Origin: a virus
Lineage: Duplodnaviria > Caudoviricetes
DNA length: 54,942 nt
Direction: 5' to 3' (one strand)
Virus record (IMG/VR): IMGVR_UViG_3300042923_000238
Location: 1-54,942 of that record
Within the stretch, counting starts at the first letter, position 1. Each line of letters begins with the position of its first letter. Positions 25,562-27,283 of the stretch are shown piece after piece. The notes below the pieces were generated by a model. That model was not told the origin of the DNA. It was given only the letters and a program-made list of their open reading frames with translations, and did not search any database. Both the position numbers and the translations under genes were made by a program.

Positions 25562-27234
25562 CTAGAAGGCCCAGATGCCTGCCGTCTGCGTGCTGCGTTC
25601 CTTACCGCGGACCTTCATGTCGTTGAGGGCGCGGTAGGCGAGCATCAACGCGGCGTAGGCGTCGACCTTCTTAGGGGACTCCGGGGTCTCCTTGCGGAAG
25701 GAGATGCCCCAGGTGTTCGTGGCGCGGCGTGCGTTCATGACGTGCCGCTGGAGGGTGAGGTCACCGTTGTGGTGGATGCGCTTGTCGTAGACCGCCTGCA
25801 TGAGGTCTTCGTGCGCGAGCGTTGACGCCTTGAGCGAGCGCATGTCCCAGCCGATTGGCGAGTTGCCGGACGACTTCACGGCGAGCTGGTCGCCGTAGGC
25901 GCGAGTCCAGTCCGCGATATCGCCCTGCCAGAGGGTCACGTCGGCGTAGAAGCCCTGTACGTCGTAGAGGCGGAAGGCTTCGTGAACGCGGTCGTTGACC
26001 TCATCGCGGTTGATCTCCCAGCCCTCACCGGCAGGCCCGAAGGGCTTCTCCCAGAGGCCGAGGATCTGCGCGAAGCCATCACTCACGCGGATGCCCACAA
26101 GGGCTGTAGCGTCGTCGGACTTACCGCCGTCGAAGCCGAGCGTGATGCGGTCGCCAGGGCGCAGCATCTCGTCCTTGTAGCCGTCGCTCAGGCCCGTCCA
26201 GGTGGACAGTGCGTAGACCGCATCCTCTTCCGCGACGATCTGGTTGAGCCACATGCGTCGGGTTCGCGCTGCGGAGCGCTTACCCTTCTGGATGTTGCCC
26301 ATGATCGACTCGATGGAGAGCCACTTGGCGTCCCCGCGGATGCCGTCCAGAATGCGCGGCAGGAGAACCGGGTCGAGGGGTGCTGTCTCGTGCGCCTCAA
26401 GCGAGTCGTAGAGGAAGCCGACATCGACCGCGATGCCCTCTTGGATCATCTGGTACTCAGCGCGCTGAACCTCAGCGACCGAGCCCTCGCCGGGCATGTA
26501 GGCGTTGGTGATCGCGAGGAAGCGACCGTCCATCTTGGTCGTGTTGTCGTTGAGGGTCTCGTACATCTTGTGACCGCCGTTGGAGGCGATCCAGTGGTGA
26601 GTCTCGTTGAGCACGACAAAGGTGGAGCGCCCGCCCTCAAGGGTGCGGTAGTTGCTCGTGATGGCGTCGAGAGTGGCGGTGCCGTGGAAGGCGACCGCGG
26701 TCTCCGCGCGGACTTCAAGACCGAACTCAGCGGCCATCTCCGGCCCGGCGAGGGTCGGGAGCATCCGCATGGTGTTCTTGGTCTGCGACTGCGAGACAGC
26801 GGCGACCTGGACCCAGGGGCGCGGGTGGCGCTTCGCTACGGGCTCGCCGTCCTCGTCCCAGTGGGAGAAGCGCGACGGTCCGCAGAGCTCGACCAGCGAG
26901 AGGCAGGCGAGGAGCGGGTCCTTACCTAACCCCACCCCTTCATGCGCTGAAGAACGCCGGTTTGGTAGATGAACCGGCCTCTCTCATCCACTGAGAACCA
27001 GTGGAGAATGAAGCGCATCTGCTCGTCGGTGAATTGCCACGGCTCGCCTTCGTCGTTGCGAAGGTAGCGGGCGCACCAGCCGATGACCTGCCAACCGATC
27101 GTGCGCTCCGGCAGGAGCCATCCGCCGTCCTCCTTGCGCTGCCACGTGGGGCCGACGTAGAGGGGGGTGATTGCACGCTCGTCGAGGTTCAGGGCCTTGA
27201 GTCGATCCTGCTCTTCTGTGCTGAGGGGTGTAAT
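25562..27234 (-). CDS. terL: Terminase large subunit in two frames (27234..26926 and 26923..25562), probably recoded
   Basis: The N-terminal frame ends QRMKGWG*. The second frame continues KDPL, Walker B LNETHHW, AITNAY, LGFDGG and KVDAYAA. Confidence 0.85.
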
Positions 27235-27283
27235 GGGGAATCACCTCCTCGACGGGTCGTGCTTGCGAGGAGTCGATTCGCTC

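Follow-up and report, generated by a model that had tools for sequence, protein, structure and literature searches.

A phage terminase gene with no canonical start codon, a probable AUU start and a gap consistent with translational bypassing

AUU start codons and bypassing in terL are each already known. The AUU start of infC is sensitive to IF3. In translational coupling, a hairpin that occludes the Shine-Dalgarno (SD) sequence of a gene is opened by a ribosome coming from upstream, as in the RNA phage MS2. Bypassing in the terL gene of phage phiHau3 was reportedly found by Smith and colleagues in 2013.

Both infC and pcnB of E. coli start with AUU. Measured in this bacterium, AUU, AUC, AUA and CUG reach 1-2% of the initiation at AUG, and 0.02-3% when other constructs are used (10.1101/063800). 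In Enterococcus faecalis, a rare ATT initiation codon attenuates expression of ebpA (PMC4447247). UUA-triggered translational bypassing is described in terL of the Streptomyces phage phiHau3 and of two prophages (PMC10732093); that study used an N-terminal GFP fusion, its account leaves the start undiscussed, and “AUU” and “AUC” have no occurrences in its main text. The programmed +1 frameshift of prfB is described both there and in PMC6815119. Our literature search returned no paper on an AUU or AUC start in terL, nor one that connects the strength of a start with bypassing. ATG, GTG and TTG are the only starts that gene callers and the rules for phage annotation allow, and as a result essential terL genes are mis-called or split in public records.

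The terL locus and its leader

We analyzed a 54,942-nt stretch of actinophage DNA from a soil metagenome (the window, meaning the whole stretch), in which terL lies on the minus strand. The gene order on that strand is glycosyltransferases, tRNA-Asp, HNH, terS, terL and portal, and the features that matter here are the following:

27838-28146, minus strand: HNH endonuclease gene, upstream of terS (phrog_333, E 5e-31)
27284-27817, minus strand: terS (small terminase), stop TAG at 27286-27284 (Pfam PF25673 Terminase_7, E 4e-27)
27235-27284, minus strand: predicted intergenic hairpin, 5' arm 27284-27266, 3' arm 27251-27235
27240-27250, minus strand: Shine-Dalgarno GAGGAGGTGAT, from the sequence
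27242-27244, minus strand: GTG within the SD, in the terS frame and not the terL frame, opening an 86-codon ORF (ORF list)
27241-27243, minus strand: TGA within the SD, in the terL frame, shutting that frame upstream (from the sequence)
27235-27238, minus strand: CCCC run (from the sequence), CCC in phiHau3-type relatives
27232-27234, minus strand: ATT, proposed terL initiation codon, 9 nt past GGAGG, unchanged in contigs X2 and X4 and in locus L116
26929-27234, minus strand: terL N part, 102 codons, ending in ..MKGWG, with take-off codon GGT at 26931-26929
27016-27018, minus strand: ATG at codon 73, the first in-frame ATG, GTG or TTG, within the conserved N domain
26924-26928, minus strand: 5-nt coding gap TAGGT (TAG plus GT), whose last three bases, GGT, equal the take-off codon
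25562-26923, minus strand: terL C part, from AAG GAC CCG (KDP.., reading KDPLL...) to the stop (phrog_9)
24004-25530, minus strand: portal gene, downstream of terL (phrog_104, E 1e-92)

Further upstream on the same strand, a tRNA-Asp (GTC) lies at 28160-28235 of the window, between a glucosyltransferase gene and the HNH gene. The longest HNH ORF (28269-27838) overlaps this tRNA, and the start of the HNH gene is therefore probably internal to that ORF, near 28146. Window positions 28242-30195 (minus strand) hold a row of three genes that resemble glycosyl-, glucosyl- and galactosyltransferases (phrog_854, phrog_1579 and phrog_3047), a short way upstream of the packaging module.

Both parts of terL match phrog_9, the terminase large subunit family of actinophage Arquatrovirinae-like type, and keep the order of the profile: the N part aligns to positions 69-135 (E 6e-16) and the C part to positions 261-675 (E 6e-50). 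The N part matches 1436 phage records, led by Streptomyces phages with 55-65% identity, and a Pfam search with both terL halves and the HNH protein returned no family. The earlier note, written from the sequence of the window alone, had called the stretch after the ATT TerL-like, and the profile matches of both halves agree.

On the minus strand, the leader reads GAGGAGGTGA (27250-27241), TTC CCC, ATT (27234-27232), ACA CCC CTC AGC. Within it, AGGAGGTGAT agrees over all 10 nt with the complement of the 16S 3' end, and the SD written in full, AGGAGGUGAU, is unusually long, with 9 nt from GGAGG to the ATT. The window has 10 copies of the shorter element GGAGGTGA, where 2.96 are expected, and none of 100 shuffles had as many. 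Four other copies have an ATG or GTG at +3 to +7, and the SD-to-start spacing of other window genes is 3-13 nt; the terL spacing is normal for this phage. As in genes that use a near-cognate AUU or AUC, an SD stands at working distance from the candidate codon, and no ATG, GTG or TTG occurs in frame between the upstream stop and conserved coding sequence. The ATT is the sole in-frame start-like codon behind the SD, and its frame translates as ITPLSTEEQ..GPTWQR..WLLPERTIGW..PWQFTDEQ..LQRMKGWG until the TAG at 26928-26926. The GTG at 27244-27242 is one base off this frame, and the CCCC run at 27235-27238 is the sole site at which a +1 slip could bring a ribosome from the GTG frame into that of terL.

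The earlier description of this leader, a near-perfect SD with an in-frame TGA inside it followed by TTCCCC and ATT ACA CCC, is therefore correct for the minus strand. It had also put the stretch lacking a canonical start at about 75 codons; the absence is real, and the first such codon is codon 73. The observation of a terL gene without a normal start codon is confirmed.

The SD-CCCC-ATT leader is not an assembly error. A Logan contig of the probable source run equals the window over 26850-27350 at a depth of 288 with 0 differences, although it derives from the same data and is not independent. Contigs X2 and X4, from other studies, are ~96-97% identical to the window, cover 27229-27350 and differ there only at 27252, 27253 and 27299, which leaves the SD, the CCCC run and the ATT unchanged. 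L116, a metagenome locus, is 79% identical to the window in protein and, over the terL N part, 78% in nucleotides, yet from GAGGAG on it shares 31 bases of the SD-to-ATT block without a difference, and 1 base in the backward direction. Reads with ATG at 27234 would have spoken against the ATT; we found no variant at this depth, and the ATT is kept in X2, X4 and L116.

Substitutions in relatives follow the ATT frame. In the N part of the X2 contig, 7 of 8 fall at third positions of this frame, including codons 19 and 23. Between the window and L116, the N parts differ by 31 synonymous and 20 amino-acid-changing codons, with 20, 5 and 41 differences at the first, second and third codon positions. 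Judged by these patterns, purifying selection acts on the ATT frame from its opening codons onward.

Starts in homologous loci

We fetched 173 homologous loci; with the window, 153 have a readable start and junction, and 126 of them are unique. Most relatives carry GGAGGTGA or GGAGGTAA followed 3-6 nt on by GTG, TTG or ATG, and in relatives whose terL is uninterrupted one of these codons stands 3-6 nt behind GGTGA. Five of the 126 unique loci have zero in-frame canonical codons from the upstream stop to GPTW, with an ATT, ATC or CTG 6-9 nt past the SD core:

The window and L116: ATT at the start position; no in-frame canonical start
L108 (Lentzea prophage): GGGAGGTGA GTC CCC ATC; no in-frame canonical start
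L053/L057: GGAGGTGA CCG ATC ATC; uninterrupted terL, no in-frame canonical start
L093 (Kribbella deserti): CTG 9 nt past the SD core; uninterrupted terL, no in-frame canonical start

The comparison of terL starts in homologues that the earlier note had proposed thus leaves only ATT, ATC or CTG in L116, L108, L053 and L093. At the corresponding position, the codon is conserved or canonical in relatives: ATT in L116, X2 and X4, ATC in L108 and L053, and ATG in the Kribbella-type loci L004, L086 and L089, where ATG AAC CCC CTC TCC ACC GAA GAG aligns by eye with the window's ATT ACA CCC CTC AGC ACA GAA GAG. The exceptions are L029 and L095, which have GTC at the codon where the other loci with this odd leader have ATY.

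We consider initiation at the AUU at 27234-27232 the best reading of the sequence, and probably the right one. The proposal made in the earlier note holds up well, as the ATT is the only option behind the SD, is conserved, and aligns with an ATG in relatives. We infer that initiator tRNA would read this AUU, directed by the long SD, and that initiation would be weak and IF3-sensitive, as expected of a near-cognate codon; ribosomes finishing terS would probably open the intergenic hairpin and so license terL initiation.

Several observations count against AUU. The SD-embedded GTG is in the terL frame in 24 of the 29 unique odd-leader loci and may be used there; it is in frame in phiHau3-type genes, which have a three-C run, and GenBank places the terL start at this GTG in phiHau3, BroPlease and GreenWeasel. 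In L029 and L095, the GTC leaves only the embedded GTG to serve as a start. In both the window's lineage and L108, the GTG is off-frame through the same CCC-to-CCCC change, exactly one extra C, as a +1 slip requires. Hairpin support is also modest in several lineages.

Apart from the last, these points favor the alternative named in the earlier note, a start at GTG 27244 and a frameshift. Here peptidyl-tRNA-Pro would slip by +1 on CCC-C (27238-27235), which is a known shift-prone sequence. The product would be M-I-P-I-T-P-L.., like that of phiHau3-type genes with GTG in frame, and with one C fewer the peptide would be as long as phiHau3's. We nevertheless regard this route as unlikely. The GTG abuts the SD core (0-2 nt spacing) and sits in the hairpin stem, and the CCC is followed by CAT, neither a stop nor a rare codon of the kind that lies behind the shift codon in prfB-like sites; the GTG frame stays open for 86 codons. 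In L053/L057, the GTG is out of frame and no slippery run is present, so a frameshift cannot explain the L053 start. Finally, this route needs two inefficient events, against one for AUU initiation.

Hairpin, hop gap and start type

Folded alone, the intergenic stretch is predicted to form a hairpin whose 5' arm starts at the last base of the terS TAG (27284) and whose 3' arm contains the whole SD plus spacer and ends one base before the ATT (MFE -20.3 kcal/mol, z -2.9, 2/200 shuffles as good). The centroid structure of the leader has the same stem. A hairpin spanning the terS stop to the AUY recurs with differing sequences in the window, L108, phiHau3, L009 and L053:

L108: z -5.65, 0/200 shuffles as good
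phiHau3: z -1.8, 11/200 shuffles as good
L009: z -1.9, 7/200 shuffles as good
L053: z -2.2, 8/200 shuffles as good

It is weak or absent in L084 and L029 (z -1.0 to -1.1) and in L034, L074, L061, L093 and L123, not reaching significance in L034, L074, L093 and L123, and in L116 the SD is folded onto the first codons instead. RNAalifold on nine leaders gives a weak consensus of -3.25 kcal/mol with 7 pairs, and Rfam has no match at the terL leader. In L114, L115 and L117, the nearest uninterrupted relatives, the terS stop and the terL ATG overlap as TGATG. The predicted folds suggest that terS translation unmasks the terL SD.

Other roles for the leader were considered and set aside. Masking of the SD does not fit as a further, third brake peculiar to interrupted genes, since the energy needed to open -14 to +3 runs in the opposite direction, at 13.5 kcal/mol for interrupted (n=21) and 14.8 kcal/mol for uninterrupted genes (n=80). 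We also discarded a uORF ending at the TGA of the SD: among the ORFs listed, the only one in frame 0 is a 30-codon CTG ORF (27333-27241), a TTG at 27297 begins its last 18 codons (by eye), no SD is visible by eye, and reading L108 gave no counterpart. Long-range pairing between leader and gap was likewise rejected; it is visible by eye in phiHau3 and absent by eye in the window.

The AUU might instead be used by the same 70S ribosome after termination on terS, which would scan 49 nt and re-initiate, with no free 30S involved. Scanning by 70S ribosomes is described (PMC10732093), the hairpin starts within the terS stop codon, and the TGATG overlap of L114, L115 and L117 is in line with such re-initiation, but the intact 10-nt SD argues for SD-directed selection, and we judge re-initiation by 70S improbable.

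Initiation at AUU would by itself yield only the N part of TerL. The continuous KGWGKDP of the P-loop region is broken in the window into KGWG, a stop, and KDP in another frame, and is restored only by skipping 5 nt. As in phiHau3-type bypassing, a short non-coding insert lies exactly between the GWG and KDP codons, and the landing codon matches the take-off codon (GGT in the window; GGC in L116 and the 6-nt variant). Among relatives, L116 has TAGGC as its gap, X2, X4 and X5 share TAAGGC, which is 6 nt long and in frame, and L114, L115, L117 and an 89% relative (X2 record 2) have no gap. Each variant in the window, L116 and X2/X4/X5 puts a stop codon first and a Gly codon last, matching take-off GGT, a pattern that favors bypassing over a -1 frameshift. 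At take-off, TAG occupies the A site in the window, and TAG or TAA in relatives, rather than the rare UUA. Full-length TerL would thus need a 5-nt hop, GGU UAG GU, landing on GGU, and terL output would be low, arising only when terS is translated and only from ribosomes that complete the hop.

The junction varies further across the homologues. An Arthrobacter-type clade (L067-L082, L109, L134-L165) has KGW, TAG and an 8-nt gap (TAGCCAGG, then GGC AAR GAY); L163 and L164 have a longer gap with two stops, and L080 and L083 are uninterrupted with a plain GTG start. In some members of this clade, a GTG upstream of terL has an SD of its own and shares the terL frame; in others, this GTG is off-frame or its frame ends at a stop, so that it looks like a variable uORF. 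L034 and L096, from a Nocardioides alkalitolerans prophage, have a 9-nt in-frame gap, GGT TAG CTG AGC AAG, in which no Gly codon precedes AAG; ribosomes there would have to read through the stop codon or hop to a landing codon that does not match. The codons AAG GGT TGG stand before the gap in seven Streptomyces-type interrupted genes (L002, L009, L025, L029, L084, L085 and L095), and L108 has AAG GGC TGG like most uninterrupted genes; this synonymous difference goes with the insert mostly, not always. In L025, an HNH-like ORF (by eye, ~1250-1525) ends at the TGA inside the terL SD, abutting terL, the only interrupted locus in which we saw this. The idea that the gap gives immunity to a homing HNH had just this one locus to suggest it and was set aside. 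For L085 (GreenWeasel, 2335-3688), GenBank splits terL into three CDS (genes 6, 7 and 8), which fits a second gap like the g7/g8 gap known from phiHau3; the window has one gap only.

Two unusual features in one essential gene of a metagenomic contig could also mean that terL is defective, whether because the copy is decaying or through an error in consensus or assembly, and that no TerL is made. This is very improbable given the depth of 288 with no variant, the recurrence of the leader in two other studies and in L116, a substitution pattern of purifying selection, and the Gly landing codon kept in every gap variant; for phiHau3, a full-length product is shown experimentally (PMC10732093). 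A start at the ATG of codon 73, with 72 untranslated codons upstream, has only its place as the first in-frame ATG to commend it and is hardly credible, as codons 1-72 are homologous to the TerL N-terminus of the 1436 phage records and diverge with a third-position bias.

Returning to the start at AUU, we compared start type with interruption. A properly spaced canonical start is lacking in 22 of 27 unique interrupted loci versus 12 of 99 uninterrupted ones, and the five interrupted exceptions have an extra upstream GTG in frame. In a first locus set, ATT or ATC lay 8-9 nt past the SD core in 19 of 21 interrupted loci. The raw Fisher test of start type against gap state on that set gives p 2e-11, with relatedness ignored. 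An independent-pairs test of hop against start type found only 3 pairs on supported branches (median p 0.25) and is underpowered. The odd leader is also present on the uninterrupted genes of L053, L061, L093, L123, L127 and L131. The suggestion of the earlier note that the start is tied to the hop therefore stands in part: the two co-occur, but the leader is not confined to genes with a gap.

On the protein tree, as on a tree of N-part DNA, the interrupted state must have changed 10 or more times. L009, L025, L029 and L108 are each nearer to uninterrupted genes than to other interrupted ones, and L009 resembles L013 in its backbone, into which a phiHau3-like leader and, separately, a junction segment appear to have been patched. 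By these sequence comparisons, interrupted loci are spread over several different terL backgrounds. A shared g6 cassette carrying both features was rejected, because the tree of N-part DNA does not group the interrupted loci together (10 changes).

By analogy with the strength of AUU in E. coli, the leader may act as a translational brake and may serve a regulatory purpose. It is conceivable, though on balance doubtful, that selection has favored weak initiation gated by terS together with terL bypassing, as parts of one system. The gap would then go with a start at AUY or at a GUG embedded in the SD, behind an SD-masking hairpin, and terL backbones that are otherwise unrelated would have acquired gap and leader as two short patches, each separately. 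Sparse loading may spare ribosomes paused at take-off from collisions with trailing ribosomes, an idea that draws on the account of collisions at stalled ribosomes in PMC6815119; alternatively, both steps may form a two-stage gate on terminase dosage. If such co-selection is real, start strength would be a tunable determinant of natural bypass efficiency.

The combination of an attenuated, upstream-gated start and a translational hop offers a way to test whether the rate of initiation bears on bypassing. Nature supplies cases in which only AUU or AUC fits, in the lineage of the window, in the Lentzea prophage and in L053, and they provide a clean test bed for near-cognate initiation in Actinobacteria.

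Comparison with known systems

As in infC and pcnB, a near-cognate AUU would be the sole start of a real gene; output of the two E. coli genes is low. Unlike them, the terL gene of the window belongs to a phage structural module and combines a 10-nt SD, a hairpin at the terS stop and a downstream bypass site, and it has no known autoregulatory logic. The gene would share an ATT start with ebpA, which comes from a Gram-positive organism, but ebpA is a cellular pilus gene and is not known to have a recoding site or coupling hairpin.

In MS2-type coupling, as in the predicted fold here, a hairpin runs from the upstream stop to the downstream start with the SD in its 3' arm; the difference lies in the probable near-cognate start of terL in the window. 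The prfB frameshift site, which is the model for the GTG-plus-slip route, likewise has an SD-like element close upstream of a shift-prone codon. In the window, however, no stop or hungry codon follows the CCC, and the SD would serve initiation at a codon inside itself.

The closest system is phiHau3 terL, which belongs to the same gene family and shares the GWG/KDP site, matched Gly take-off and landing codons, and the leader type, GAGGAGGTGA plus 5 nt plus ATC in phiHau3. The gap of the window differs in being 5 nt long and in opening with the stop codon TAG rather than UUA.
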